A stretch of DNA of 64,000 nucleotides, taken from assembly GCA_049324575.1 (NCBI GenBank), contig JBMONI010000002.1, positions 92,804 through 156,803 on the forward strand, in the 5' to 3' direction. The notes beneath the pieces are model-generated. The model was given only the letters and a program-made list of their open reading frames with translations. It searched no databases and was not told where the DNA came from. The first letter of the stretch is position 1. Each line of letters starts with the position of its first letter. Origin of the DNA: Candidatus Omnitrophota bacterium (GTDB taxonomy: Bacteria; Omnitrophota; Omnitrophia; Omnitrophales; Aquincolibacteriaceae). Made by a program: the position numbers and the translations under genes. Shown one piece after another: positions 13,304 through 44,330 of this stretch.

Positions 13304-14137
13304 TCATTTGGTCTGAAGAAAACGCGCGGGGGGTTTGATCCTCTTAGACCGCATCGCCTGATAGACCAACCGGTCGAGATCTTCTTTGGAAAGACCGCGG
13401 AACAATTGCCCGCCGAAAGCCACGCTGATCTCCCCGCGCTCTTCGGAAGCGACAAGGCTGAGCGCGTCTGCCTTTTCCGTGATGCCGATCGCCGAACGGT
13501 GCCGGGTCCCGACCCCCAGAGGGACATTCGGACCAGAGGCCAGAGGCAGGATCACTTTCAGCGCGCGGATCCTCCCCTTGCGAATGAGGATCGCTCCGTC
13601 ATGGACCGGCGATTCATGCGAAAAAAGAGAAAGCAGGATCTCCGATTTTACCTCGCCGTCGAAAGAAAAACCCTTGGAAAGGAACGGTGAAAGGTCGGAG
13701 CGTCTTTCAAGAACGATCAAAGCGCCCATCTTTTTTGCGGCCATGGCCTCGAGGGCGCGCGTGATCTCCGCCAAATAGACCGGCAAGCCAAATTTGCGGC
13801 GGAGCCGCCACCACGTCCTGAAACGCCCCCAGAGTCCCAACAGCATTTGAAAGCTGAGCAAGAGGAAGCCGAACGTCACAAGGGCCATCTGGACCCCGTC
13901 GAGAAAACGGACTGTGAGGATCCCGGTCAGGATCCATCGGACCGCGGTCCAGAGGCAAAAAGCGCCGGCCCCATAGCGTAAAAGACGGTTCCCGCAAGAA
14001 TCGGCGGGATGGTAAAGAATGAAACCAAAGCCCGTGAGAAGGGCCAGCCAGAAAAGGATCGGAGTTAGCGCATCAAAATTCATAGGAAGGTCATCTCGGT
14101 CATGAAATGGGATTATAAACGAAAAGAGCCGGTTCAT
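13304..14137 (-). CDS. cdaA: Diadenylate cyclase (c-di-AMP synthase), membrane-anchored CdaA type
   Basis: Three N-terminal TM helices then DisA_N motifs HDGAILI and GTRHRSAIGITEKADALSLVASEERGEISVA (DGA / RHR). Start codon sits in the loop of hairpin 14124..14148. Confidence 0.8.
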   Translation of the reverse strand: MNRLFSFIIPFHDRDDLPMNFDALTPILFWLALLTGFGFILYHPADSCGNRLLRYGAGAFCLWTAVRWILTGILTVRFLDGVQMALVTFGFLLLSFQMLLGLWGRFRTWWRLRRKFGLPVYLAEITRALEAMAAKKMGALIVLERRSDLSPFLSKGFSFDGEVKSEILLSLFSHESPVHDGAILIRKGRIRALKVILPLASGPNVPLGVGTRHRSAIGITEKADALSLVASEERGEISVAFGGQLFRGLSKEDLDRLVYQAMRSKRIKPPARFLQTK

Positions 14138-29659: not shown

Positions 29660-32600
29660 TTAGGGTGATATGTTCGAAATCCAGGATGCCTTACCCTCTT
29701 TCATTTCAAAACGCCATTTCCAAATGAAATAAATGACGGGGTAGACAAGCAATTCAAGTATAAACGAAGTGGCAAGCCCTCCGATCATCGGCGCCGCGAT
29801 ACGCTTCATGGCATCGGAACCTGCACCCGTTGCCCACATGATCGGCAAAAGCCCCATGAAGGTCGCCATCACGGTCATCATTTTGGGACGGACACGTTTG
29901 ACGGCGCCGTGCATGATCGCTTCTTCCAGGTCTCTTTGGGTGCGCATCTTTTTATTCCGGACCGCATCGTCATAGGCCAGATCGAGAAAAAGCAGCATAA
30001 AAACCCCTGTTTCTGCGTCAAGACCCATCAAAGCGATCATCCCCACCCAGACCGCGATCGAAATATGATAATCCAGAAGCCAGAGGAACCAGACCGCCCC
30101 GACCAGGGAAAAGGGAACCGCTAAGAGAACAATGCCTGTTTTAACCGCGGATTTAGTGTTGATATAAAGTAAGAGACAGATAAGAAAAAGCGTCAAAGGA
30201 ACCACGATCTTTAATCGTTCTTTCACGCGGATCATGTTTTCATATTGCCCGCTCCAGATCAGGGAATAACCTTGCGGAAGTTTGAGTTCGCGCGTTACGA
30301 TCTTTTTGGCTTCCGCGACATAGCTGCCGATATCCCGGCCGGCCATATCGACGTAAACATAACCCGCCAAGAGCCCGTTCTCATTGCGAATCATCGCAGG
30401 GCCGGGGACTTTTTTGATCTCCGCAAGCTGCGCGATCGGGATTTGTCTTTCCATCGGGCCTTTCACCGCAGAGCCCGTCCCCTCTGCTCGTGTAGGAACA
30501 AGAACGCGTTTGAGCTTTTCAAGGTCATCGCGGAATTCCCTCGAATACCTGACATTGACGGGATAGCGTTCACGCCCTTCTACCGTCGTCGTAATGTTTT
30601 CTCCGCCAATCGCAGACGTGATCACGCTTTGAACATCCTCCACCGAAAGTCCATAGCGCGCCATCGCTTCGCGATTGAGTTCAAAATCGAGAAAATACCC
30701 TCCCGCCACCCGTTCCGCATAGATGCTCCGGGTCCCGGGAATATCCTTCAGGATCATTTCTAAATGTGTCCCGATCTCTTCGATCTTTTTGATGTCCGCG
30801 CCCAAGACCTTGATCCCGATGGGGGTACGCACCCCGGTCGAAAGCATATCGATCCGGTTTTTGATCGGAAGAGTCCAAGCGTTGGTGGTTCCGGGGATCT
30901 GCAAAGCCTGATCCAATTTTTGCACCAGCTCCTCCCGAGAGAGATGCTGTGGCCAAATACGCTCGAGCGGCCACTGGAACATTTCCGGGACCCAGCGAGA
31001 ATACCACCGTTCCTTTTTTGTCCACTCCCTTTCCGGTTTCAGGAGAATAACGGTTTCTATCATGGAAAAAGGCGCCGGATCCGTGGAACTCTCCATCCGT
31101 CCGGCTTTCCCGAACACCCGTTCGACCTCCGGAAAAGCTTTGAGGATCTTATCCTGCTTTTGAAGAAGCCGCTGGGCCTCCGTCACCGAAATCCCGGGCA
31201 AAGTGGTCGGCATATAAAGAAGGTTCTCTTCCCATAGAGGCGGCATAAACTCGGAACCAAGCTTGAAATAGACAGGGATCGTACTCAACACAAGAAGCAG
31301 CGCTGCGAGGATCGTGGTCTTCCGGTGCTTCAGAACCCAACGGCAAACCGGCTCATAAATTCCGAACAGGACCCGACTAACCGGGTGTTTTTCTTCCGGA
31401 TAGTAAGTTCCGACCGCAATCCCTGTAACCGCTTTGGAAAGACCGGTTTCGATCTTTTTGGGAAAAAAAGGCAACTTCAGCCGGATCGGATCCATCCGGG
31501 CAAAAAGCATCCGCATCGCGGGATCCAGCGTCACCGCTAAAAGCGCCGCCATGACCATGGCCAGATTCTTTGCCCAGGCCAGCGGCCGGAATAAACGGCC
31601 CTCCTGGTCCATCAGCGTGAACACCGGCAAGAACGAAACCGCAATGACCAAGAGTGAAAAGAAAACCGCGGGTCCGACCTCTTTCAGCGCTTGAAGACGG
31701 ATCGCGTGGAAATCCCCCTGGCGCCCCCCTGCGATCCATTGCTCAAGGCGTTTGTAGGCATTTTCCACCTCTACGATAGCTCCATCCACCAAGACCCCGA
31801 TCGAGATCGCAATGCCGGAAAGTGACATGATATTCGAAGTGAGCTCCATCCGGTGAAGAAGAATAAAGGAGAGCAGGACCGAAATGGGGATCGTCACGAT
31901 CGGGACAATGGCGGAGGGGAAATGCCAGAGAAAAAGGAGAATCACAAAACTGACAATGATCATTTCTTCGATCAACTGATGTTTTAGCGTATCGATGGCA
32001 TGCAGGATCAGCTCTGAACGGTCATACGTCACAACCAATTCCACGCCGGCCGGAAACGAAGGTTTTAGCTCCTCGATCCTCGCTTTAACCCGCCGGATGA
32101 CATTTAAAGCATTTTCGCCCGAACGCATCACCACCGTGCCGGAAACCACATCGCCCTCACCATCCAGGTCCGCAAGCCCGCGGCGGATGTCGGGACCGAT
32201 CGCCACGGTGCCCAGATGCTTGATCAAGACCGGGGTTCCCTTCGGATCCGTCGTTACGACAATATTCTCAAGGTCCTGGACTGATCTTGCATAACCCCGC
32301 CCGCGGACCATATATTCTGCACCGCTGAATTCTAAAAGCCGGCCTCCGGTCTCCTGATTGCCGCTGCGGACCGCCGCTAAAACTTGGGTGATCGGGATGT
32401 CATAGGCCAGAAGCTTATTCGGATCGAGCGTGATCTGATATTGTTTGACAAAACCGCCGAGGGAAGCCACTTCCGCAACGCCGGGAACGCTTTGCAGGTA
32501 ATAACGGAGATACCAATCCTGGAAGCTTCTCAATTCCTGGAGACTGTGCTTGCCGGTCTTATCGACCAGGACATACTGGAAGACCCAGCCGACCCCGGTC

Positions 32601-33022
32601 GCATCCGGTCCAAGCTCGGTCTGCACTCCTTGTGGAAGCCGGGGAATGATCTTACTCAGATATTCGAGTGTCCGGCTTCTCGCCCAATAAAGGTCCGTTC
32701 CGTCCTTGAAGATCACATAGACATAGGAAAAGCCAAAATCCGAGAATCCGCGGACCGCTTTGACATGGGGCGCGCCGAGCATCGCGGTAACGATCGGATA
32801 AGTGACTTGGTCTTCAATGAGGTCAGGGCTGCGGTCCCACTTGGAGTAAATGATGACTTGGGTATCCGAAAGATCAGGAATCGCATCCAGCGGGATGTTC
32901 TGGATCGACCATACCGAAGCCACGACAGCGACCGCCGTGAGAACAAAAACAAGAAGCTTATTATGGGCCGAAAATTCGATGATCCGTTCAACCCAACCGC
33001 CCTGCCTCAATGGCGCGTCCAT
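29660..33022 (-). CDS. cusA: CusA/CzcA-family heavy-metal efflux RND transporter
   Basis: 1,120-aa 12-TM RND permease. Confidence 0.9.
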   Translation of the reverse strand: MDAPLRQGGWVERIIEFSAHNKLLVFVLTAVAVVASVWSIQNIPLDAIPDLSDTQVIIYSKWDRSPDLIEDQVTYPIVTAMLGAPHVKAVRGFSDFGFSYVYVIFKDGTDLYWARSRTLEYLSKIIPRLPQGVQTELGPDATGVGWVFQYVLVDKTGKHSLQELRSFQDWYLRYYLQSVPGVAEVASLGGFVKQYQITLDPNKLLAYDIPITQVLAAVRSGNQETGGRLLEFSGAEYMVRGRGYARSVQDLENIVVTTDPKGTPVLIKHLGTVAIGPDIRRGLADLDGEGDVVSGTVVMRSGENALNVIRRVKARIEELKPSFPAGVELVVTYDRSELILHAIDTLKHQLIEEMIIVSFVILLFLWHFPSAIVPIVTIPISVLLSFILLHRMELTSNIMSLSGIAISIGVLVDGAIVEVENAYKRLEQWIAGGRQGDFHAIRLQALKEVGPAVFFSLLVIAVSFLPVFTLMDQEGRLFRPLAWAKNLAMVMAALLAVTLDPAMRMLFARMDPIRLKLPFFPKKIETGLSKAVTGIAVGTYYPEEKHPVSRVLFGIYEPVCRWVLKHRKTTILAALLLVLSTIPVYFKLGSEFMPPLWEENLLYMPTTLPGISVTEAQRLLQKQDKILKAFPEVERVFGKAGRMESSTDPAPFSMIETVILLKPEREWTKKERWYSRWVPEMFQWPLERIWPQHLSREELVQKLDQALQIPGTTNAWTLPIKNRIDMLSTGVRTPIGIKVLGADIKKIEEIGTHLEMILKDIPGTRSIYAERVAGGYFLDFELNREAMARYGLSVEDVQSVITSAIGGENITTTVEGRERYPVNVRYSREFRDDLEKLKRVLVPTRAEGTGSAVKGPMERQIPIAQLAEIKKVPGPAMIRNENGLLAGYVYVDMAGRDIGSYVAEAKKIVTRELKLPQGYSLIWSGQYENMIRVKERLKIVVPLTLFLICLLLYINTKSAVKTGIVLLAVPFSLVGAVWFLWLLDYHISIAVWVGMIALMGLDAETGVFMLLFLDLAYDDAVRNKKMRTQRDLEEAIMHGAVKRVRPKMMTVMATFMGLLPIMWATGAGSDAMKRIAAPMIGGLATSFILELLVYPVIYFIWKWRFEMKEGKASWISNISP

Positions 33023-33028
33023 TCTTTC

Positions 33029-34315
33029 TCATCCTCCGTGCGCATGGCTGCTTGTGCCGCCCGCGTCTTCAAGCGCGGCTTTGAGCCGGCTTTCGGAATC
33101 GATCAGAAAATTACCGCTTGTAACAACGATCTCGCCTTCCTGAAGTCCACCCTGGATCTGATAAAAACCATCGGTTTTCGTTCCCAAGGCAACGGCGCGA
33201 GGTTCAAAAAGAGAACTTTCTTTCGCGACAAAAACAATGTTTTTTTCGCCGGTCATGAACACGGCCTCTTCGGGCACCGCCAAATGTTCGCCAAGGTCGA
33301 TCCTGAGCGAAACATTCACATACATCTCCGGCTTCAGCTCCCCCGCCGGGTTTTCGAGCTGGGCCCGCACCCGGATCGAGCGCGTCACGGGATCTACCAC
33401 GGGATCCAGCGAACGGATCGTCCCTTGAAATATCTTTTGAGAAATAGCAGGCACCTCCACTTCGACCGGGTCTCCGGCATGAACAAAAGGCATCTCATAT
33501 TCATAGATGGCCGCATAAAGCCAGACCTTGCCCCCCGCGTCGGAGTAAAGGAGCGAACGATCCGGCTTACCGGCCTCTTCGAGCTCCTGCACAAGGGCAT
33601 CGTTCAAACCCAGCAAGCGCAGTTTGATCCGGGCCGAATCCACAAGCTTTTCGGCTTGCTCTCGCATCTCAGGATCGGCGTTTTCCGCTCTTTGCAGAGC
33701 CCGGACCGCTTGCAAATATTCCTCTTCAGCCTGATAGAGTTCGGGATCGTAAGCGATCCTCCCGGAAACACGAAGGGTCTTTTCAAGCCTCTGTTCCTGT
33801 ACCGGGGCCATTTTGACACCGATGGCCTGCTGTTTTTCCGTCCCCAACCGGATCTTCGTATAACCCTCGGGGAAAGCATCTTGTACGATAACTCCCAGAT
33901 CTTCCATGCAATGAGGGCATTTGCCCATTCTCGCAAACTCCGGGGTCATGGCGATCATGCACTGCCCCATCTTGCATTTATGGAGAAGGCAGATCTCCCC
34001 CGGCTTCATGGCGACAAGCTGTTCGACCGTAAAGACCTTCGGCGATGTCTCCGGCGAACTTTCATGGCCGTTATGCCCTTCAGACGCTATCGACTCATCA
34101 GCAGAAGCTTCGCGTTTTACCAGCGACATGTTACAGATCGGGCATGTGCCCGGACGGTTCGAAGTATAATTGGGATGCATGGGGCAATAATAGAGTTCTT
34201 TGGAAGCTTGCATATCGGCCGGTGCTGCGGAGTGAAAGCGGACCCCCCAAAGAGTTCCCGCCGCAACGATCGCTGCGACCGCCAAGACCCATAATGCGCG
34301 GTTCATTTTGATCAT
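33029..34315 (-). CDS. cusB: CusB-like RND periplasmic adaptor with two N-terminal Cys/Met metal-binding motifs
   Basis: YYCPMHPNYTSNRPGTCPICNMSL and CLLHKCKMGQCM...CPHCMEDL N-terminal metal sites; MFP body. Confidence 0.85.
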   Translation of the reverse strand: MIKMNRALWVLAVAAIVAAGTLWGVRFHSAAPADMQASKELYYCPMHPNYTSNRPGTCPICNMSLVKREASADESIASEGHNGHESSPETSPKVFTVEQLVAMKPGEICLLHKCKMGQCMIAMTPEFARMGKCPHCMEDLGVIVQDAFPEGYTKIRLGTEKQQAIGVKMAPVQEQRLEKTLRVSGRIAYDPELYQAEEEYLQAVRALQRAENADPEMREQAEKLVDSARIKLRLLGLNDALVQELEEAGKPDRSLLYSDAGGKVWLYAAIYEYEMPFVHAGDPVEVEVPAISQKIFQGTIRSLDPVVDPVTRSIRVRAQLENPAGELKPEMYVNVSLRIDLGEHLAVPEEAVFMTGEKNIVFVAKESSLFEPRAVALGTKTDGFYQIQGGLQEGEIVVTSGNFLIDSESRLKAALEDAGGTSSHAHGG

Positions 34316-35643
34316 GGGAGCTTCTCCTTTTCCGCGTTTTTCAGATCAAGCCCGGCGGCCCAGGCAAGATCGGTGTATGCCTGCAAAGCCGTCGTATAAA
34401 AACGGATCTGAGAAAGTTTCGCATTAAGATAAATGCGTTCGCTATCGAGCAGATCCAAAAAATCGGTTTTCCCGGATTCATAGCCAGCTTGATCCGCAGA
34501 AAGCGCTAATTGAGCCTGCGGAACGATCGCAACGTCATAAAGATCCGCGATCTTGGAGGCGCTTTGAAAGCGGGAATACGAATCTTTGACCTCGAAGAAA
34601 GCTTGATTTTTCACAGCCAAAAGCTTGGCGCGTTCGGCCTCCTCCAATTTGGCGGCTTTCTGGATCTCCGGGATGATCCGGTTCTGCCAGATCGGAAGAT
34701 TCACTTTCAGCGGGAACATCCAGCTGTCCCGTCCGTCCATATCGGAGGGTTCCATCGTCGTCCCGGCGCCGACCCGTACATACTCAAACCCGACATTCAC
34801 ATCGGGGACATAGGCCAATTGCGCAAGACGTTTGGAATAATGAGCTTTGGAAACCATGGCTTCCGCTTCTTGGATCGCCGGCCGGTGAAGGACCGCAAGG
34901 TTCACGAGCTCTACCAGGGAATTCCCCAAAACCGGTTTGGGCGGAAGCGTTGCCTTCCCGAACGGCTGCATCGGGTCCCGGTCAAGGAGCGCATTGATCT
35001 GGGCCGTAACACTTTCCCTTTCTTGCTCCAGCCTATAAAGTTTTTCGAGGCTCATCGAAAATTCCGTCTGGGCCTTCGCGACATCGCGCTGAGATCCTTC
35101 CCGGCTTGAATAGCGGGCCTGCGCAGCCGCCTCGAATTTTTTAAGAAGTTCTTTGATTTCAGCAAGCGTATCCAGAGAGGCATCAATAAAATAAAGCTCA
35201 TAATAAAGTTTGCTGAGTTTGGCCGTAATGTCACGTTCGAACGCTTGGTAGCGGGCCCAAGCCGCCCTGGCCTCGGCTTTGGCTTCGTTCCTTTGCTCCC
35301 AGAGCTTAAGCGGAAAGGGAATGTCCTGAGCCACCATAAAACGGTTTTTCTGAGGCCCGACACGGGTCTCGGTCATTGAGCCCATAATGTCGTAGCCCCC
35401 TATTGGATCTGGAAGGGCCCACGAGGCCAGGATCTCCTTCTGAAAAGCCTCCCATCCAGCTTTCGCCGCAATAAGCTCTGGATTCCGTTGAAGGGCTTCT
35501 TGGAGGAGGACTTCCAGATCGAGGGAAGAAGAAGACAGAACCACCGCTCCTGTCTCCTCCCCCCTGCAAACAGGGGAAAGAAGGGAGAGGACCGTCAAAA
35601 TACTGAGCAGAACCCTGAGATGCTTTCCGCTAGAACCGCTCAT
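34312..35643 (-). CDS. cusC: TolC-family outer-membrane efflux protein
   Basis: Start trimmed to ATG 35643 (MSGSSGKHLRVLLSILTVLSLLSPVCRG signal); 4-nt overlap with cusB. Confidence 0.8.
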   Translation of the reverse strand: MSGSSGKHLRVLLSILTVLSLLSPVCRGEETGAVVLSSSSLDLEVLLQEALQRNPELIAAKAGWEAFQKEILASWALPDPIGGYDIMGSMTETRVGPQKNRFMVAQDIPFPLKLWEQRNEAKAEARAAWARYQAFERDITAKLSKLYYELYFIDASLDTLAEIKELLKKFEAAAQARYSSREGSQRDVAKAQTEFSMSLEKLYRLEQERESVTAQINALLDRDPMQPFGKATLPPKPVLGNSLVELVNLAVLHRPAIQEAEAMVSKAHYSKRLAQLAYVPDVNVGFEYVRVGAGTTMEPSDMDGRDSWMFPLKVNLPIWQNRIIPEIQKAAKLEEAERAKLLAVKNQAFFEVKDSYSRFQSASKIADLYDVAIVPQAQLALSADQAGYESGKTDFLDLLDSERIYLNAKLSQIRFYTTALQAYTDLAWAAGLDLKNAEKEKLP

Positions 35644-35699
35644 CCAAGCCGTCCTTTCCAGACCGGTAATTCCGGTCGCCATCGGCCGCTCTTCCGATC

Positions 35700-35978
35700 T
35701 TATTTTCTCAGGCTCTCGAAAAGACGGTAGATCTCGTTCAAGTGCTCCGTCTTCTTCGCCTGAGACCGCCCTTCGAACGCCTGCTTGGCGCAAGCGTTCA
35801 AATGATCCTTGAGGATCTTTGCTTCAACGGTTTTAAGCGCGCCGCGAATAGCCGCGATCGCGTTCAAGATATCGACGCAATACCGTCTCGTTTCGATCAT
35901 CCTCTGGATGCCGCGCACCTGTCCGGCAATCCGGCGAAGGGCGACCAACTGATCGTCATGTGGGGTTCCTTTCTTCAT
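35700..35978 (-). CDS. csoR: CsoR/RcnR-family metal-sensing transcriptional repressor
   Basis: MKKGTPHDDQLVALRRIAGQVRGIQRMIETRRYCVDILNAIAAIRGAL... with the C-H-C copper-ligand pattern; start at ATG 35978. Confidence 0.85.
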   Translation of the reverse strand: MKKGTPHDDQLVALRRIAGQVRGIQRMIETRRYCVDILNAIAAIRGALKTVEAKILKDHLNACAKQAFEGRSQAKKTEHLNEIYRLFESLRK

Positions 35979-36050: not shown

Positions 36051-36374
36051 TCAGGCTTCGAGAAGGCTAAAGACCTGCCGGTAATAGTCTGCCAGATTAC
36101 GCAAGGACCGCATAAAAAGGAGGGAAAGCGCCCAGGTCACGGCGAGGATGAGGAGCGTCCAAAGCCATTTCATAGGACGGGAATATTTCGGGTGGAACCA
36201 GAGGAGCGGAAGCATCAGGGGCCCGACCATGAAAAAGCCGATCACGAGAGTGGAAAGTTTGAAATACCAGGGAGCGCCGACAGAGGTCTTTCGCCCTTCC
36301 AGGAATTCACCGCAATGCTTGCATTTGATGGCTTCGTCCTGGATCTCTTCCGCGCAAAACGGACATTTTTTCAT
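36051..36374 (-). CDS. Zinc-ribbon (CPFC...CKHC) two-TM membrane protein, hypothetical
   Basis: MKKCPFCAEEIQDEAIKCKHCGEF... followed by two hydrophobic helices. Confidence 0.5.
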   Translation of the reverse strand: MKKCPFCAEEIQDEAIKCKHCGEFLEGRKTSVGAPWYFKLSTLVIGFFMVGPLMLPLLWFHPKYSRPMKWLWTLLILAVTWALSLLFMRSLRNLADYYRQVFSLLEA

Positions 36375-36423: not shown

Positions 36424-37065
36424 TTAACTGACACGGATAAAAGCGGAAGCGTCGGTCTTGCAGATCGCACAGGTCCCCGAAGAGGCCGCTTCCTTGATAT
36501 TCCCGCAGACGGGGCACACGAAAAAATTCTTGGTCCCCTTTTTCCAGGCTTCCTCATGATCAAGGATCTTGCGGCAAAGGTCCGCATGAACGTTCTCGGC
36601 CTGCATCGCGTCCTTGAAAGAATCGACAGCCTCTTCGGCCCCCGCCGCCTCGGCGGTCTCGAGGAAATCCGGATACATGGCCGTGGCTCCGTCCATGCGC
36701 TCGTTGAGCATCGTTTCGAGGTTGTCGCGGGTACTCTCGACCTTCGCCGGATCGATCACCGCCGCCGGCTCGCCGCCGAGCTGGCGGATCACTTCCGCGT
36801 GCCGTTCAAAATGGACCTGGGCCGCACGCGCGATTGCGCGGAAAAAGCCCGCGACCGCTCCAAAGCCTTCCTGGTCAGCCTTCCCGGCGAACGCCATCGC
36901 GTTCACATGGGCATTGCTCTCCGCGCGGAAAGCGGTCATGAGAAGCTCAAGCGGGCCGTTCTCCTGGTTCGTTTCCGCGGCCACGCTCATGCCCGACAAG
37001 GTTATCCCCATCAAACCTGCCAGCAAGAATGCCCCCAGTCGCTTGCGCGCTCGGACCCTGTTCAC
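36424..37065 (-). CDS. Rubrerythrin with apparent N-terminal signal peptide and C-terminal rubredoxin-like CPVCG...CAICK
   Basis: Ferritin-like E...E..H motifs (AFRAESNAHVNAMAFAGKADQEGF...HFERHAE); GTG start 37065 has a good RBS (GGGAAGGA-8nt) and overlaps the stop of the upstream giant gene (GTGA). Confidence 0.75.
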   Translation of the reverse strand: MNRVRARKRLGAFLLAGLMGITLSGMSVAAETNQENGPLELLMTAFRAESNAHVNAMAFAGKADQEGFGAVAGFFRAIARAAQVHFERHAEVIRQLGGEPAAVIDPAKVESTRDNLETMLNERMDGATAMYPDFLETAEAAGAEEAVDSFKDAMQAENVHADLCRKILDHEEAWKKGTKNFFVCPVCGNIKEAASSGTCAICKTDASAFIRVS

Positions 37066-40000
37066 GCTTTTTTTCCTTCCCGCAAAGAGACCTCAGCACC
37101 GATCGGGCTCTTGCTCACATCCCGGCGGACCCGGCCCACCTTCAAACGGCCGCGAGGCTCTCCGAGATCCTTGGGAAGGACCAGCTGATTCCCCGCCAGG
37201 GAAGCCCCGACCACGCCTTCGATCGCCTGACGAAGCATCCATCCCGCCGCCCCGGTATAACCGTGCCATATCATGCGGCCCTGGTCGTAATTGGTCAAAA
37301 GGTCTGCCGCCTGTTTGTTCGGCTGGCCCCCGTAGATCTCGATCTCTCCGGCCGTCACATGCGGAATGGAGGAAATTTTCAACCATAGCCGAAGCGCGGT
37401 TTCGCGATAGGAAGCCGCTTTGGAAGCATTCCCCCGCGAGGCATAATGTTCGGCCAGGACCCTGGCGGCTTTCACAAGCCATTGGACCCCGTGACAGTAC
37501 ATGCCGTTCTCGCGGACCCCTTCCGGATATTTACTGCTTCGGCCCAGATAAGGCTTAGTATCCTCGCGAAGCGACGGCCATCCGAGCAGGATGGCGTTCG
37601 GTTTTTCAAGGACCTGAAGCGCCGTATTGAAAACGATCTCATTGCGCTCGGGATTGATCCCCGCCATGACCGCCCACGCCGCGGTCAGGGCGTCAATCTC
37701 CCAGATCCCGCTCCCCTTGATACCGATCTCGGTGCCGTCATCATGGATCGCCCGAAGATACCGGTCGGTCCGCCATGTTCTTTCGAGCGCTTCGGCAAGC
37801 GCCTTCATCTTTTTCTCGTAGTGCTCCCGCCGGGCGAGCCCGTCCCGCTTCTCGATGATCCCAAGCATTTCCTTGAGGATATAGTAAAGGAAGAAACCGA
37901 GCCAAATACTTTCCCCCTTCCCCGCGCTCCCGATCTCATCCAGCCCGTCGTTCCAGTCCCCGGTCCCGATCAGCGGGATGCCGTTACGCCCCATCCTTTT
38001 TTCGAGTACGACGTCGATCGATTTCATGCAATGGCGATAGACCGTATCGGCCCGCGTGGAGCGCTGGTAAAAATGTCCCCAGCCATGTTTGTTCTTCGGC
38101 AGAGGCGCGAACGGGAATTCCGAGGTCACATAAGAGGTCATTTCGTCGAGAATCGTTTCATCCCCGGCAAGGCGAAGATATTCCGCCACTCCCCAGGAGA
38201 GCCACAGCAGATTGTCCGAGGCATGGGAACGGCAGGAAAAAGAAGTGCGTCCGTCGGTCAGCGTGAAGAACCAGTGGAAGACATCCCCTTCCACGAATTG
38301 ATGCGAGGCATGGAGCAGGATCTGTTTACGAGCCAGCGCCGGATCGACCCAGATCATATTGACGGTATCCTGAAGCTGGTCCCGGAAACCGAACGCGCCG
38401 CTGGTCTGATAAAAGCCCCGGCGCGCCCAGATCCGTTCCGCAAGGGCCTGATATTTGAGCCAGTATTGGTATGCATCGAACTCCGGAAGGTCGGTCTTGA
38501 TCTCAAGGGTGTTCATGAGCCGGAGCCACCAGTCGCGCGTTTCTTCCAGGCTCTTTCGGGCGGTATCGAGATTTTTGTATTTCTGGACGATCCGGATCGC
38601 CTCCGGATGCGTGTCGGTCTGTCCCAAGACGATCGCAATGGTTTTCTCGCCCCTGGCCGGGATCTCCACCGTCCCAAGGAATCCCGCGACCGGCTTGTCA
38701 TCGGTCCGATGCCCGAGGTCCGGCTCCCCGGTTTCCACCAAAAAGGGGTGCGTCACCCCGCGGCCCCGGCCGAAAAAGGCCCCGCGTTTCGTGACCCAGC
38801 GGTCGGCCGGAATCGACATGGACGCAAAAGCCCACCCGGTGCGGAAAAGATTGCGTGGATTCTCGAAAAGAAGCGCATCGAGGACCTTGTCATGTTTTTG
38901 GCACAAAGCTCCGGCCCGCTCAGGCTGGAACGCGAGCGCGATCTGAAAATAAGGCGCGATCCGCATCCGCTTGAGCCTGTCGGAATCGTTCTTCACGGTG
39001 AGAAGATAAACCCCGGTCGGCTCGTCCGGAGGGACAAAAACGGTCAACTGGGTCGAGACCGAGCCGGAACTCATCCGGAACACCGCGGTCCCGTCCACGC
39101 TGAATTCGGATTCATAGCGCGCCCGCAGATCATTCAAGGGATGATAGGTCGGTGAGAACCATTCTTTTTGATCCGGATCGTACAGATAGATCGCTTCCGC
39201 CGGGACTTCTTTCGTCACCGTATCGGGCCAATCCGGCGTCACGCGGTTCTGCTGAGAATTGCCGTTGCAGGAAGTATGCAGGCCCCGGTTCGTGACCATG
39301 ACCGAATGCACGGCATTGGAAAGTGCGTGATCATAAGGACGGGTCGTGAACGGGGTCCGGACGATAAGCTTCCGCCCTTCGGCCGTATATTCCGAATAAG
39401 GCTGCGGGGTCCCGGGCAGGATCTCGCCGTGGCCGATCAAAGGCTGTCTTTTCTTACCGGGGACCGCGGGGGACGCGGCGGCCTTCGGGGCCAGATGCTT
39501 CTCGATCATCTCGAGCGCCGCCTTCTTGTTCTTCGCCCAGCCGATCATCAGCCGCATCGATTTTGGGGCCGCGGGCGCAAGCGCCATGTCCACCACAAGA
39601 CAACCGATCGGATCGAAGGTCGGATAAGGCGCCATGTCTCGCGCTTCAAGAAAACCCATGGTCTCAAGGATCCGGGGTGTCCAAAGACTCCGGGCGCGGC
39701 CGATAAAATCCATGCGGGAGGTATGGAACCCCTCGGGCGCCGCCTCCGAAGCCAGGATCCCCATGGACTTCGTGTTCTTCTGCCAGGAAAGCACGGCATT
39801 GGCCTCGCTCACATATTCCATTTCCGGATAAAGCCGAGCATACTGCGTATGGAAGCGATCATCCAGAGGCCGGTTCAACACCCACTCCAGATACGGGACG
39901 ATCTTGAGCGCGCGGGGCTTCGAACTCAAGTTCTCGAGCAAAATCGTCCACACCTCCGCCGTCCCGTTATGCGGAACGAGCCCGATCTCGATCGTGGCCC

Positions 40001-43000
40001 GCACCCCGTGATTCTCGTTCACAAGCTTCAGGCGATTTCCGTCCTTGGAGATCCTGGACGCCGGGAACCGGTCGCGCGGAAAATTCCCGAAGATTGGCCA
40101 GGCGCGCGCCGCGCTCCCCGGTTTTTCCGCCATATCCACCACAAAAAGCGCGCGGCCGCAGGGCTCGAGATTATCGTAGCAGCGGCGGCTCACATCATAG
40201 CTTTTTTGCACCACTTCGCTGTACCCTTCGCCGCCCTCGAGGACCACCGTCTTGTATTCATGATGTCCGATCTCGAAACTTTTCTCGCGGCGGCTTTCCC
40301 CGCGGCGGACCATCGCGCGGAAACAAAAGGAAATGAGCGTCGCCAACAAGACCGCCCCGAGACCGACCCCCAAGAGCTGAAGGACCGGAAGCGCCCGCAG
40401 GGACGCGACAAGTCCCGCGCCCTTTGCGTTCTGGATCGCAAGCGAGGTCCCCCACGCATAATCCCATTCCGCGCCGCGCGGGATATAAAAGGGAATGAGA
40501 AGCGGCGCCCATGTGGTGAACCGCTTGACCCCTTCGGGAATGCACCGTTGCGCAGCGGCCGGACCGATGAACTTCGCGGTCTTCTCGTCCAGCTTATCCA
40601 TGCCGATAAAGCTCAGGTTCACGAGCGTCGCGACCCGCAGCCCCATGTGGTCCATCCAGATCAGGACACGAAAGAAATCAAAGGCCAGCACGTAGACGAA
40701 AACCGTAAGGCTCCAGTCCCGGAAAGCCTCCGGAGACAGGGTCAGCTTATTCCAGATCGCGACCAAGGTGCGGATCGCGCCATCCTGGTTATACCAGGTC
40801 GGATCGGGCATCATGCGCAGGAACGTAAAAATAATAGGCGACATCCAGAGTCCCCAACGGAGGACGTAAAGCATGTGCTGGATGAGCTCCATGAAACCGG
40901 CTTTCGAGAAAAAGAATTTGATCGGCGCGGTATCCTTCTGGAAGAACGCCTCCATGAAGACCTTATTGACAGCGAAAAGCCAGGCCGCGATCGACCAGTT
41001 AATGACCCCCGCCAGGGATTCGGTGAAAAGGAGCTTGGCCCCGCCGGAGTAACTGCCGAGGTCGATCCGCCCCCATTTGTTGACCAACGGATAGGTGATG
41101 TAGTCGACCGGAGTAAATCCGGCGCTCGTATAAAGTTTGAATTTTTCGATAACCACGGGGACCTGAAGCGAATCCAAATAGAAAGCGACCGCGCTTCCGA
41201 CGAAAGCGCCCAGGGCCGCGTCCACCAGATAAAGCCGCCACGACTGGATATTCCCCTGGCCTTTGAACGTATAGAGGGCGTCCCGCAGCAAACTGACCCC
41301 CAGCGAGGCCGCCAGACCGACCATGCAGCCGAAATGGATCCGGCTCGGCATCGCTTCCTGGAAAAGCCCGCGGCTGATCATGAAAGCCAGTCCAAAGCCG
41401 ACCACCGCTCCGCGCACGTACAGGATCGGATTCCGGTAACTGTAATGAGCCCGCTCAAAAAAAGGAAGACTGCCGTCGAACGATTCGATGATGGTCTTGA
41501 TGAGCGGGAAAACAAGCGCTCCCGCCATAAGCCCCACGACCAGAGGGAAAGAAGCCATGATCGAGCTCACCGCCGAATGGTTGAGCGCCAGATACAAAAG
41601 ATAAAGGATCGCAAGCAGGATCCCGCTATAGGCCATCCCCTTGCGCATGCCGGTATAGGAATGCTGGGAAACCGTTTCCGAACTCGGAGCTTTCCGGTGC
41701 ACCCCGTCCACAATAGCGCCCGTGATCAGATAAACTTCGCCCCAAAGCCCCGCATAAGAAAGGATCGTCGCAAGGATCGACACCATGCCGCGAAAGAGCG
41801 CCGGCAAAGCGCCGACCCAGGCGGTGGAACCCCAATCCGCGATCTCAGGCGCGAGCGCCACGGCGACCGAAACAAAAAGCATGGAAAGATGCGCTTTGCG
41901 GACGTTCAGGACCTTCCCCTGGGTCGCGAGACTGATCCCGCTGATCACGACTTCGTTAAAAGCAAAAACGATCACGGCACGGCCCAAGATCCCCAAAACG
42001 ACCGGCCACGCCGCAAGTACGCTCAGCGTCAAGGCGCCGGCCAGGTCCTGCAAAAGCGCCGCGTTCTCGAGAAGAAGGATCCAGCCTAAAAGATAAGGAG
42101 TAAGCACGATCAGTCCGCCCGCGATCGGCCGCAGGTGCTTTCCGGAGTTGGCCATCGACAGGACGTTCACGGACTGGTAGATCACAAAGGTCAGCGCTGC
42201 GAGATGGTTCGTTAAAAGGAAGAGCTGCGACCATGTCGCCGGGGCCTGAAGGATCTCCTGCCGGCTCGAACCCGCGGCCAAAAGTCCCGTCAAAAGGATG
42301 TCCTGGAAAAGCTCGGACGGGGTCAGCGTTTTCCCGGCAAGCACCCGCTTGCAAACGGCAGAAAGCGCGGCTCCGAGCAAGGCGATCCCGAGGAAATGAA
42401 AATTGGTATCGAGCGTGCTCCCCTTGCCGAGCCCGCAGATCATGAAACCGATCGCAAGGATCGTGACCGCAACGGCCCCGTAAAAAAGATCCTTTTTGAG
42501 ATGCCAGAGCCAGGACCTCGGAAACGCCGAAAGGTCCTCGGCCGGGACCGCAGAAGGAGCAGCGGACATCCGCCGGCCCCGGAAGATCCGCTTTAAGAAC
42601 GCGGCGACGCCCGCCATCAGGAGGCTCAGCAGGATGACGAGAGAGACCTTGATCAGCGTAAAATTCTTCTCGAGCGGCGTCAAACGTCCGAAGCGGAGAT
42701 CGAAGAAAAGTTTTCCCGTGACGGCTTCGCTGATCTCAAGCGGGCTCACGCCGATCGGATTGATGGCCATCGGTCCTATCGCCATCGGACTGACGACATA
42801 AACGACCTCCGTCAGGTTCCCGATCGTATTCCAGTTCACCGCCTCAAGGAAATAATTCCATCCGGGCTGCAGCCGTAGCGGAATGCTCTGCATCCCGCGG
42901 GTCCCCTTGATCTCGGCTTTGACGGTCACCTGCTGGATCTGATCCCCATGGGGGACCTTGACGCCGATCTTTACGGCGTCCGCGACCTCGGCCCCGTAAT

Positions 43001-44330
43001 CCTCGGGATACGATTTAGTCCAGATCCCCACCGTCGATCCTTCGGGCAGCGTGTAACTGAACTCCCAAAGGTCCCTTTTCAAGCTTTCATCGAAAACGCC
43101 GGTCACACTCCCCTGCGAAGGCCCGATGTTGAAAACCCCTTTTTCCCCCGCATCGAGCATCCCGAAAACGGCCGTGAAGAGGTCCGGAGCGGAAGTTTTC
43201 GGAACCGGGCTTGCCCTTTTGACGAAATCAAAAGCCAAATAAAGGGTGCCATGGGCCTTTTCGATCCCCTCCCGCGCCGTAATGCGAAGCCGGAGTTCTT
43301 TGAGGTCCCCGAGAGAAGCTCCGTCCAGGAATTCCTGGATCGAATTCCATCCCCGTTTGAGTTCAAGCGGAAAGTTTTTTTCGCTTCGGGTCCCTTTCAA
43401 AAGGACTTCCGCAGTGATCTGTTCGACCTGTCCCGCTTCCGGCACCCGGATCCCCATCCGGAGGGTGTCCATCGCTCCGGACTCGATCCCCGCCGGGAAA
43501 TCCTTGGCCCTCATTTCCACTGAGCCCTCATCCTCGATCGAGTAATCGAACTCCAGAACGTCTTTTCCCGCAACCTCATCGAAGGAAGGCGTAAGCGTCC
43601 CCTTGGCATCCCCGTCCTTTTCGACCTCGCGCTTACCTGCGCTCATCAGCGTCATGGACGACACCCCCGCGGCCGCAGGAGTCGGTTTCGGAGGCGGCGG
43701 TGCAGCAACCCGAGGAGAACTGACCGTGGTTTTGACGGACGGGGTCTGCGGAGGTAACATCGAGATGAATTCCGCGGTAAAAGCAACGGATCCTTCGGCG
43801 CTCATTCCTTGAGCGGCCGGTGAAACGGAAAATTCGACTGCTTCCAGCGTCCCCACCTTCGCCCAATCCAAGGATTCCTGGAAAGCGCTCCATCCCTCAC
43901 GAAGCCGCACGGGGATCTGCTGGGTCCCGGCCGATCCCTTGATCTCCAAGGTTAGGGAGATCTGCTTTGCGGTCTCGGCACTTGCCGCTTTGGCCCCGAT
44001 CCTTACCGCAGAAACGGCCGCAGCGCTCAGGAAGGCGGGGAACGATCTCGCCCAAAAAACCACTTTCGCTCCCGCCGGAATGGAGTAATCGAGCTCGAGA
44101 ACGTCTTTGCCGCTCGCGCTGTCATAAGTCGGCGTCGAAACCGCCTTCAGCACCCCATCCTTCGTGAGGCCACGCTCCTTGGCGTCCAAAAGCGTCGCGA
44201 TCGGGGCTGAGGCATCGGTTTCGGCGGCGCTCGAGACCCCGGAAGGAAAACAAGCATTTAAGAAAAAAACGGAAAGGGAAAAGAGGAGCGATCTTGAGAA
44301 CAAAAAAGCCTGCTGTCTTCTCGAGAACAT
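37062..44330 (-). CDS. Giant 2,422-aa membrane protein: signal peptide, three tandem roughly 170-aa repeats (exported), roughly 20-helix membrane domain, C-terminal GH94-like glycoside phosphorylase / cyclic-glucan-synthase-C-terminal-like domain
   Basis: Three repeat motifs DVLELDYSIPAGAKVVFWARSFPA / DVLEFDYSIEDEGSVEMRAKDFPA / DLWEFSYTLPEGSTVGIWTKSYPE; long hydrophobic block; C-terminal motifs QTSGAFGFRDQLQDT and IGTGDWNDGLDEIG typical of GH94. Confidence 0.75.
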   Translation of the reverse strand: MFSRRQQAFLFSRSLLFSLSVFFLNACFPSGVSSAAETDASAPIATLLDAKERGLTKDGVLKAVSTPTYDSASGKDVLELDYSIPAGAKVVFWARSFPAFLSAAAVSAVRIGAKAASAETAKQISLTLEIKGSAGTQQIPVRLREGWSAFQESLDWAKVGTLEAVEFSVSPAAQGMSAEGSVAFTAEFISMLPPQTPSVKTTVSSPRVAAPPPPKPTPAAAGVSSMTLMSAGKREVEKDGDAKGTLTPSFDEVAGKDVLEFDYSIEDEGSVEMRAKDFPAGIESGAMDTLRMGIRVPEAGQVEQITAEVLLKGTRSEKNFPLELKRGWNSIQEFLDGASLGDLKELRLRITAREGIEKAHGTLYLAFDFVKRASPVPKTSAPDLFTAVFGMLDAGEKGVFNIGPSQGSVTGVFDESLKRDLWEFSYTLPEGSTVGIWTKSYPEDYGAEVADAVKIGVKVPHGDQIQQVTVKAEIKGTRGMQSIPLRLQPGWNYFLEAVNWNTIGNLTEVVYVVSPMAIGPMAINPIGVSPLEISEAVTGKLFFDLRFGRLTPLEKNFTLIKVSLVILLSLLMAGVAAFLKRIFRGRRMSAAPSAVPAEDLSAFPRSWLWHLKKDLFYGAVAVTILAIGFMICGLGKGSTLDTNFHFLGIALLGAALSAVCKRVLAGKTLTPSELFQDILLTGLLAAGSSRQEILQAPATWSQLFLLTNHLAALTFVIYQSVNVLSMANSGKHLRPIAGGLIVLTPYLLGWILLLENAALLQDLAGALTLSVLAAWPVVLGILGRAVIVFAFNEVVISGISLATQGKVLNVRKAHLSMLFVSVAVALAPEIADWGSTAWVGALPALFRGMVSILATILSYAGLWGEVYLITGAIVDGVHRKAPSSETVSQHSYTGMRKGMAYSGILLAILYLLYLALNHSAVSSIMASFPLVVGLMAGALVFPLIKTIIESFDGSLPFFERAHYSYRNPILYVRGAVVGFGLAFMISRGLFQEAMPSRIHFGCMVGLAASLGVSLLRDALYTFKGQGNIQSWRLYLVDAALGAFVGSAVAFYLDSLQVPVVIEKFKLYTSAGFTPVDYITYPLVNKWGRIDLGSYSGGAKLLFTESLAGVINWSIAAWLFAVNKVFMEAFFQKDTAPIKFFFSKAGFMELIQHMLYVLRWGLWMSPIIFTFLRMMPDPTWYNQDGAIRTLVAIWNKLTLSPEAFRDWSLTVFVYVLAFDFFRVLIWMDHMGLRVATLVNLSFIGMDKLDEKTAKFIGPAAAQRCIPEGVKRFTTWAPLLIPFYIPRGAEWDYAWGTSLAIQNAKGAGLVASLRALPVLQLLGVGLGAVLLATLISFCFRAMVRRGESRREKSFEIGHHEYKTVVLEGGEGYSEVVQKSYDVSRRCYDNLEPCGRALFVVDMAEKPGSAARAWPIFGNFPRDRFPASRISKDGNRLKLVNENHGVRATIEIGLVPHNGTAEVWTILLENLSSKPRALKIVPYLEWVLNRPLDDRFHTQYARLYPEMEYVSEANAVLSWQKNTKSMGILASEAAPEGFHTSRMDFIGRARSLWTPRILETMGFLEARDMAPYPTFDPIGCLVVDMALAPAAPKSMRLMIGWAKNKKAALEMIEKHLAPKAAASPAVPGKKRQPLIGHGEILPGTPQPYSEYTAEGRKLIVRTPFTTRPYDHALSNAVHSVMVTNRGLHTSCNGNSQQNRVTPDWPDTVTKEVPAEAIYLYDPDQKEWFSPTYHPLNDLRARYESEFSVDGTAVFRMSSGSVSTQLTVFVPPDEPTGVYLLTVKNDSDRLKRMRIAPYFQIALAFQPERAGALCQKHDKVLDALLFENPRNLFRTGWAFASMSIPADRWVTKRGAFFGRGRGVTHPFLVETGEPDLGHRTDDKPVAGFLGTVEIPARGEKTIAIVLGQTDTHPEAIRIVQKYKNLDTARKSLEETRDWWLRLMNTLEIKTDLPEFDAYQYWLKYQALAERIWARRGFYQTSGAFGFRDQLQDTVNMIWVDPALARKQILLHASHQFVEGDVFHWFFTLTDGRTSFSCRSHASDNLLWLSWGVAEYLRLAGDETILDEMTSYVTSEFPFAPLPKNKHGWGHFYQRSTRADTVYRHCMKSIDVVLEKRMGRNGIPLIGTGDWNDGLDEIGSAGKGESIWLGFFLYYILKEMLGIIEKRDGLARREHYEKKMKALAEALERTWRTDRYLRAIHDDGTEIGIKGSGIWEIDALTAAWAVMAGINPERNEIVFNTALQVLEKPNAILLGWPSLREDTKPYLGRSSKYPEGVRENGMYCHGVQWLVKAARVLAEHYASRGNASKAASYRETALRLWLKISSIPHVTAGEIEIYGGQPNKQAADLLTNYDQGRMIWHGYTGAAGWMLRQAIEGVVGASLAGNQLVLPKDLGEPRGRLKVGRVRRDVSKSPIGAEVSLREGKKA

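Follow-up and report, generated by a model that had tools for sequence, protein, structure and literature searches.

A gene on the minus strand of a 64,000-nucleotide (nt) stretch of a Candidatus Omnitrophota genome (contig JBMONI010000002.1, positions 92,804 to 156,803; the whole stretch is called the window below) encodes a rubrerythrin-like protein of 213 amino acids (aa), and its start codon overlaps the stop codon of a gene for a giant 2,422-aa protein with a GH94 domain. We consider it probable that the product is a Sec-exported nigerythrin-like protein which belongs, as a divergent, partner-less and di-iron-degenerate member, to a large clade of extracytoplasmic rubrerythrins, that it is likely not an H2O2 reductase, and that its adjacency to the giant gene is specific to the lineage. 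The features of the gene and its product that are needed first are the following.

36424..37065, minus strand: open reading frame (ORF) of 213 aa for a predicted exported rubrerythrin-family (nigerythrin-like) protein, from the ORF list, Pfam, the AlphaFold model and the fold match
36976..37065, minus strand: predicted Sec-type signal peptide, codons 1-30, MNRVRARKRLGAFLLAGLMGITLSGMSVAA followed by ETNQ, from the charge/hydrophobicity profile
36556..36954, minus strand: four-helix-bundle (ferritin-like) domain, aa 38-170, from phmmer and MAFFT alignments
36430..36525, minus strand: C-terminal rubredoxin-like domain, aa 181-212, with C184, C187, C199 and C202 modelled at a confidence of 94-98

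Family assignment and predicted fold

The product matches the Pfam family Rubrerythrin (PF02915) over aa 40-167 with 73.1 bits against a cut-off of 22.8, and the C-terminal rubredoxin-like domain gives 16.9 bits with RUBY_RBDX, which is under the cut-off of 26.5. Among the NCBIfam models the best match was nigerythrin (NF045783) with 81.8 bits, below the equivalog cut-off of 340, and the rubrerythrin model (NF045767) reached 66.4 bits, below its equivalog cut-off of 200. An identical NCBI protein, encoded on a 175-kb contig, carries the name 'MAG: rubrerythrin family protein [Candidatus Omnitrophota bacterium]' (MAG, metagenome-assembled genome). A word-indexed protein search returned the window protein itself and two fragments, and nothing else. 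The AlphaFold (AF2) model, built from a 40-sequence alignment, has a mean predicted local distance difference test (pLDDT) value of 91, rising to about 98 in residues 38-213 and falling to 57-64 in residues 1-36. It contains helices 38-65, 69-95, 112-140 and 144-169 and a small beta domain. The top PDB match of this model in Foldseek was nigerythrin 1yux (TM score 0.77-0.82, root-mean-square deviation 1.5 Å), and rubrerythrin was also among the best matches.

Relatives were collected by running HMMER exhaustively against 1.84 billion cluster representatives, which gave 1,530 matches; the 135 homologues referred to below are the single-domain proteins among the best 150 of these. Gene neighbourhoods come from 80 GTDB loci found with 11 canonical sequences, and intact ligand motifs were required for them, so that the frequency of degenerate members is not measurable in this set. 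All four cysteines of the rubredoxin-like domain (C184, C187, C199 and C202) are kept in the window protein and conserved in 126-130 of the 135 homologues.

The degenerate di-iron site

Ligand positions were placed by pairwise phmmer alignments with the P. furiosus rubrerythrin 1nnq and the nigerythrin 1yux, together with a MAFFT alignment of the homologues. The seven ligand positions of the family (E, ExxH, ExxE, ExxH) read E49, A82..H85, R123..G126 and E157..H160 in the window protein, that is, four of seven are left. The lost ligands are Glu replaced by A82, by R123 and by G126, which correspond to one bridging Glu and both Glu of helix 3, and the codons were verified. Glu occupies these three columns in 114, 114 and 108 of the 135 homologues, respectively. 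Moreover, A56 replaces a second-sphere Tyr that is near-invariant (conserved in at least 90% of the homologues). The spacing in helix 3 from N115-L116 to M130-Y131 is identical to that of the homologues, so no indel or register shift can rescue E122 or D125 as ligands. Deviation as such is not confined to this protein: all seven ligands are kept in 81 of the 135 relatives and at least one position deviates in 54, a proportion which may be biased upward because the query itself is degenerate, and the four Cys are nearly always kept.

As far as the alignments can tell, a canonical di-iron peroxidase centre cannot form in the window protein, and a remnant of two His and two Glu together with the Cys4 site would remain. 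The protein is thus probably not a canonical peroxidase or H2O2 reductase. The preliminary description of this locus had called the product a rubrerythrin; the name stands for family and fold, and with three of the seven di-iron ligands lost it is doubtful in the sense of a peroxide reductase.

The leader peptide

Residues 1-30 contain the basic residues R3, R5, R7, K8 and R9, then a hydrophobic core, and finally V28-A29-A30 directly before E31. The core, AFLLAGLMGITL, reaches a Kyte-Doolittle maximum of 2.23 in a 12-residue window. By heuristic inspection this is the Sec-type (signal peptidase I) pattern of a basic n-region, an h-region and small residues at -3/-1. In the AF2 model the leader forms a helix (4-24) of low pLDDT, after which comes a disordered linker or coil. 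No lipobox Cys is present in residues 1-40, and the Tat consensus (S/T)-R-R-x-F-L-K is absent from the leader, which has R-K-R-L-G-A instead, with no RR pair before hydrophobic residues.

Leaders, recognised as an N-terminal extension with a hydrophobic core, occur in 108 of the 135 single-domain homologue clusters. Since only four of the 135 have an RR motif (e.g. SRREFLR in P0104) and about 23 a lipobox, the clade is mostly of the Sec type. In the GTDB species-genome loci, 63 of the 80 rubrerythrin genes carry a leader, and the stand-alone homologues of three other Omnitrophota genomes (L010, L013 and L034) have Sec-type leaders. This conservation across relatives indicates a trait of the clade, not a peculiarity of the locus, and makes a start at Met26 unlikely. 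Judged by sequence, the leader on the window protein is real; we infer that it follows Sec and not Tat, and that it is cleaved and does not stay as a signal anchor. The n-h-c profile with VAA before ET agrees with the Sec-like leader that had been proposed from the GTG start, and the positive result among the relatives supports it further. The accompanying view that rubrerythrins are normally cytoplasmic is correct for the characterised enzymes and fails for the nearest relatives of this protein, most of which bear leaders.

The clade of exported rubrerythrins and its partner genes

The closest relative of the window protein is 48% identical and the nearest relatives in the clade (e.g. P0009 and P0015) share 37-48%, whereas canonical clade members are 55-66% identical among themselves. 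The nearest homologue, P0009, lies on a 942-bp contig that offers no gene context. Members of the clade are spread over Acidobacteriota, Omnitrophota, Cyanobacteria, Verrucomicrobiota, Planctomycetota and others.

To survey partner genes, the three nearest neighbours of the rubrerythrin gene in either direction were clustered and annotated in the 80 loci. A DUF2231 membrane protein is encoded at position +1 in 25 loci (including L014, L018, L019, L021, L023 and L025), all of them among the 63 leader-bearing ones (25/63, about 40%) as against none of the 17 leaderless ones (Fisher p = 0.0009). The partner position is taken by a Rieske gene in six cyanobacterial loci (L012, L052, L054, L056, L072 and L085), and by a ferric-reductase/FAD/NAD (NOX-like) gene in three (L027, L032 and L060). 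Within the surveyed distance, a histidine kinase gene occurs in 22 of the 80 loci, a sigma-54 response regulator gene in 20 and a P-type ATPase gene in six. The DUF2231 neighbours have five conserved His, which hint at a transmembrane electron carrier of the haem type. In three exported members that are strongly degenerate, with two, two and four of the seven ligands, DUF2231 still lies directly downstream, and the module is therefore independent of an intact di-iron site. Two of the DUF2231 genes lie as follows.

L091, 5702-6358: DUF2231 gene
L092, 5728-6288: DUF2231 gene

No such partner accompanies the window copy. A hidden Markov model made from 26 DUF2231 neighbours found no DUF2231 in the six-frame translation of the window, the +1 gene encodes a zinc-ribbon protein, and neither a DUF2231, a Rieske nor a NOX-like partner is present in the window. 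L010, L013 and L034, the homologues from other Omnitrophota genomes, likewise stand alone.

Another architecture was seen among the matches P0004-P0013, P0017, P0024 and P0029, which are secreted tandem 'poly-rubrerythrins' with a signal peptide and 2-8 complete rubrerythrin units. P0004, of 1,957 aa, has eight units, and nearly every unit of these proteins contains two ExxH and two CxxC motifs.

The open-access full-text literature on periplasmic, secreted, exported or membrane-bound rubrerythrin gave nothing relevant, although absence there is not proof, and the papers that name both rubrerythrin and signal peptides deal with unrelated contexts. A family-wide survey of rubrerythrins from 2016 makes no mention of signal, periplasm, secretion or export (PMC5114695). 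For DUF2231, a single database paper was found in the open-access literature. The clade of leader-bearing rubrerythrins is thus apparently undescribed.

Proposed function and its alternatives

We propose that the leader directs export across the cytoplasmic membrane, with Sec as the most likely route and Ala30 as the residue after which it is cleaved, so that the four-helix bundle and the Cys4 rubredoxin-like domain would then be periplasmic. Canonical clade members plausibly reduce peroxide outside the cytoplasm, and their electrons would cross the membrane via the product of the following gene, which may be the His-rich DUF2231 protein, the NOX-like ferric reductase or the Rieske protein. 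The window copy would most likely be a periplasmic metal-binding or single-centre redox protein, and not an H2O2 reductase. Its gene would be transcribed with the giant GH94 gene, and its translation may be coupled to that of the latter.

Several points weigh against this proposal. The n-region of the leader is unusually basic (RVRARKR) and the h-region is rich in Gly, which gives the leader a somewhat Tat-like look. A metal cofactor protein that is exported unfolded would have to gain its iron in the periplasm. E122 and D125, each one residue ahead of a lost ligand, might restore a site if the structure rearranged locally. An intact ORF and a confident AF2 model point to a maintained fold and are silent on activity. 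The degenerate clade members with two, two and four ligands still keep DUF2231, and ligand loss alone does not mean that the function of the clade is lost. Finally, no close orthologue of the window protein turned up in a metagenome scan, so selection on substitutions (dN/dS), the leader, the ligand pattern and synteny are not measurable among true orthologues.

It is doubtful, in our view, that the protein is an active periplasmic peroxidase or ferroxidase with a non-canonical site, for example one formed by E49, H85, E157 and H160 together with E122 and D125. The bridging Glu (equivalent to E53) is Ala and has no neighbouring substitute, Arg occupies the position equivalent to E94, no indel shifts the register of the helix, the near-invariant Tyr56 is Ala, and no candidate electron-donor gene lies nearby. 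These obstacles have to be set against the four ligands and four Cys that are kept, the presence of E122 and D125 beside the lost positions, likewise spaced i, i+3, the very high confidence of the predicted fold, and the many clade members in which one or two ligand positions differ.

It is unlikely that the gene is a paralogue decaying towards a pseudogene under relaxed selection, with no specific function. Such decay would fit an orphan that is 48% identical to its nearest relative, where canonical members share 55-66%, and that has lost three catalytic ligands, the second-sphere Tyr and the partner gene. However, the 213-codon ORF is intact, and the leader, the Shine-Dalgarno sequence, the four Cys and the core packing (pLDDT about 98) are preserved. 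In addition, degenerate di-iron sites are frequent in the clade and stably paired with DUF2231, which argues for a retained function of such proteins.

Adjacency to the giant GH94 gene

The gene upstream and its junction with the rubrerythrin-like gene have the following features.

37062..44330, minus strand: 2,422-aa gene with a signal peptide, three periplasmic repeats, about 13 transmembrane (TM) segments and a C-terminal GH94 region, from Pfam and hydropathy
37062..37065, minus strand: GTGA start/stop overlap between the rubrerythrin-like gene and the upstream 2,422-aa gene, from the sequence
37080-37074, minus strand: Shine-Dalgarno-like GGAAGGA, 8 nt before the GTG and within the 3' end of the giant gene

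In the giant protein, the GH94 supersandwich and catalytic domains lie at aa 1668-2375 according to Pfam. Hydropathy, together with a basic stretch that follows the last TM segment, predicts a cytoplasmic GH94 domain and N-terminal repeats on the outside. About 35 orthologues with 50-62% identity are known from our searches, and they are restricted to Omnitrophota and Elusimicrobiota. With the cyclic beta-1,2-glucan synthases the protein shares only the GH94 part (about 30% of the length, at 28-33% identity), and it is without the GT84 and PF10091 domains of those enzymes. Neither the three periplasmic repeats of about 170 aa nor the TM segments have a Pfam match.

The GTG start (37065-37063) overlaps the TGA stop (37064-37062) of the ORF 37062..44330, and a stop/start overlap with a ribosome-binding site inside the upstream gene is the arrangement of a translationally coupled pair. 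No terminator-like site was found between the two genes, and the only promoter-like site upstream of the rubrerythrin-like gene is a weak one at 37298-37270, so co-transcription and some coupling are plausible. The overlap makes coupling possible and does not fix a 1:1 ratio. Overlaps of 4 nt also occur at three further junctions of the window (34312, 52009 and 53734).

Conservation of the pairing was followed in seven orthologous loci, and in none of them does a rubrerythrin gene stand downstream of the giant gene. What follows the giant gene differs from locus to locus: a pilin-like gene, a Dps gene, small unknown ORFs, a decarboxylase-family gene in convergent orientation or a TetR gene in divergent orientation. 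The MAG RIFCSPLOWO2_12_FULL_44_17 encodes its rubrerythrin on a different scaffold from the giant-gene orthologue. Stoichiometric co-expression with the GH94 gene, which the preliminary description had read from the overlap, is therefore not upheld by the seven loci, by the separate scaffolds or by the three other 4-nt overlaps. We take the adjacency to be lineage-specific gene packing, and the overlap carries no demonstrable functional meaning.

One locus at first sight offered a sign of conserved pairing, a 'ferritin' gene after the giant gene in L003. It was rejected, as the product is a leaderless Dps (HWNVTG motif) and not a rubrerythrin. This Dps gene (13319-13804) begins 74 nt downstream of the giant gene and is followed by an Rrf2 regulator gene; it is another iron/oxidative-stress gene at the same position, unrelated to rubrerythrin. 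The leaders of the giant protein (...SGVSSAA/ETDAS) and of the rubrerythrin-like protein (...SGMSVAA/ETNQE) end in nearly the same motif, which may be a preferred signal-peptidase site of the organism, or chance.

We find it improbable that the rubrerythrin-like protein serves the giant membrane protein as a dedicated accessory subunit, for instance a periplasmic redox or metal module docked on the repeats or the membrane domain of the latter, with synthesis matched by the overlap. The start/stop overlap without a terminator or strong promoter between the genes would suit such a subunit, as would the extracytoplasmic parts of both products and the shared AA/ET end of their leaders, and since the usual DUF2231 partner is missing from the window, another membrane partner is conceivable. 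Against this stand the seven giant-gene loci, all with different downstream genes and none with a rubrerythrin gene, the MAG in which rubrerythrin is on another scaffold, the routine occurrence of 4-nt overlaps in the window and the predicted cytoplasmic location of the GH94 catalytic domain. It is more improbable still that the exported rubrerythrins are a redox system with the Cys4 domain and the His-rich DUF2231, in place of the di-iron site, as its conserved core, in which the window copy has been re-wired to the membrane domain of the giant GH94 protein.

Start codon

In the frame of the rubrerythrin-like gene, a TGA stands 10 codons upstream of the GTG with no start codon between them, and GTG 37065 is thus the most upstream start possible. 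AGGA or GGAG occurs at a similar spacing before other genes of the window (the giant gene, the pyruvate kinase gene, the efflux genes and the CsoR gene), whereas the internal ATGs at 37011 (Met19) and 36990 (Met26) have a poor Shine-Dalgarno context. The coordinates and the GTGA overlap with the stop of the 2,422-aa gene given in the preliminary description were confirmed, its claim of a GTG supported by a ribosome-binding site is borne out by GGAAGGA 8 nt upstream, a better context than that of the internal ATGs, and the alternative start that it had named, ATG 36990, is disfavoured by its own context. A GTG-over-TGA overlap alone is not improbable by chance. Chance is exceeded by the combination: the frame is correct, a Shine-Dalgarno sequence and an n-h-c leader are present, and a leader of this kind recurs in 108 of the 135 nearest homologue clusters.

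A start at Met26, which would give a leaderless cytoplasmic rubrerythrin and turn the first 25 codons into an untranslated spacer, is highly improbable: it would leave 15 residues before the first aligned helix residue, a normal length compared with 10 in the P. furiosus rubrerythrin, and ATG is generally a stronger start codon than GTG, but ATG 36990 has GGGGA about 14 nt upstream in place of GGAAGGA at 8 nt, an entire n-h-c leader, VAA site included, would have to be encoded in the spacer by chance, and leaders are found in most of the nearest homologues, including L010, L013 and L034 from Omnitrophota.

Downstream genes and the boundary of the unit

The region after the rubrerythrin-like gene contains the following features.

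36051..36374, minus strand: 107-aa protein with two TM segments and, at its N-terminus, a CxxC...CxxC zinc ribbon, from the ORF list and Pfam (weak DUF983 match)
36031-36002, minus strand: sigma-70-like promoter TTGACA-18-TATATT overlapping the perfect palindrome ATACCCCCATGGGGTAT, at the unit boundary

The zinc-ribbon gene starts 49 nt after the rubrerythrin-like gene with no terminator-like site between them, and it probably closes the same transcription unit. The promoter that follows is strong (11 of 12 positions match, with an extended TG). After it come the gene of a CsoR-family repressor (35700-35978) and the genes of an outer-membrane efflux protein (OEP), a membrane fusion protein (MFP) with a heavy-metal-binding domain and an RND protein; the OEP, MFP and RND genes span 29660-35793. 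The CsoR gene probably starts at ATG 35978, which has AGGAGG upstream, rather than at ATG 36011. The CsoR/OEP/MFP/RND genes look like a self-regulated copper or metal efflux operon, and from what is known of the family the palindrome ATACCCCCATGGGGTAT is a putative CsoR operator. Membership of the rubrerythrin-like gene in this operon was considered and ruled out, because a strong promoter and a palindrome of its own precede the operon, downstream of the rubrerythrin-like and zinc-ribbon genes.

In L006/L007 and L009, too, an efflux system (OEP, or TetR-MFP-RND) follows the giant gene at a distance of a few kb, with variable genes between, like the genes at 29660-35793 of the window. This loose synteny suggests that the rubrerythrin-like gene sits in a variable insert.

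Comparison with known systems

In textbooks, rubrerythrins are cytoplasmic enzymes with which anaerobes reduce peroxide. The window protein shares with the classical ones (P. furiosus 1NNQ, D. vulgaris 1RYT/1LKM) the PF02915 domain, the domain order and the CxxC-x11-CxxC spacing, but these are cytoplasmic, NAD(P)H/rubredoxin-dependent H2O2 reductases with a complete ligand set, whereas the window protein is predicted to be exported and has four ligands of seven. The nigerythrin of Desulfovibrio vulgaris (1YUX/1YUZ) is closer, with 29% identity over 178 columns and the best structural match, and both proteins have a non-swapped four-helix bundle and a C-terminal Cys4 rubredoxin-like domain. Nigerythrin differs in having no export leader and all seven ligands, where the window protein has a leader together with A82, R123 and G126. 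With the leader-bearing clade (P0009, P0015; L010-L089) the leader, the nigerythrin-like domain and the Cys4 domain are all held in common. The differences are that 81 of the 135 relatives have all ligands, and that partner genes or a two-component system are found at various loci of the clade and none beside the window copy.

Periplasmic enzymes against oxidative stress are known in other forms, such as MsrP-MsrQ and cytochrome c peroxidase, which draw on a membrane haem protein or on periplasmic cytochromes for their electrons. The logic of electron supply that we infer for exported rubrerythrin with DUF2231 resembles theirs. This is a functional analogy only, as neither system has any sequence or fold relationship to exported rubrerythrin with DUF2231.

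Implications

For the window locus itself, annotation as 'rubrerythrin' overstates the capability of the protein, which is an orphan with a broken di-iron site. If it were true that the window copy uses the giant GH94 protein, periplasmic redox or metal status would be linked to a glucan-processing machine. A more interesting lead than the window locus is the pattern seen across the clade, in which exported rubrerythrins occur with DUF2231, NOX-like or Rieske partners. If the members of the clade are active, they would provide periplasmic peroxide defence, or serve another redox task, by means of a non-haem iron enzyme, and DUF2231, a domain of unknown function, would gain a testable role.

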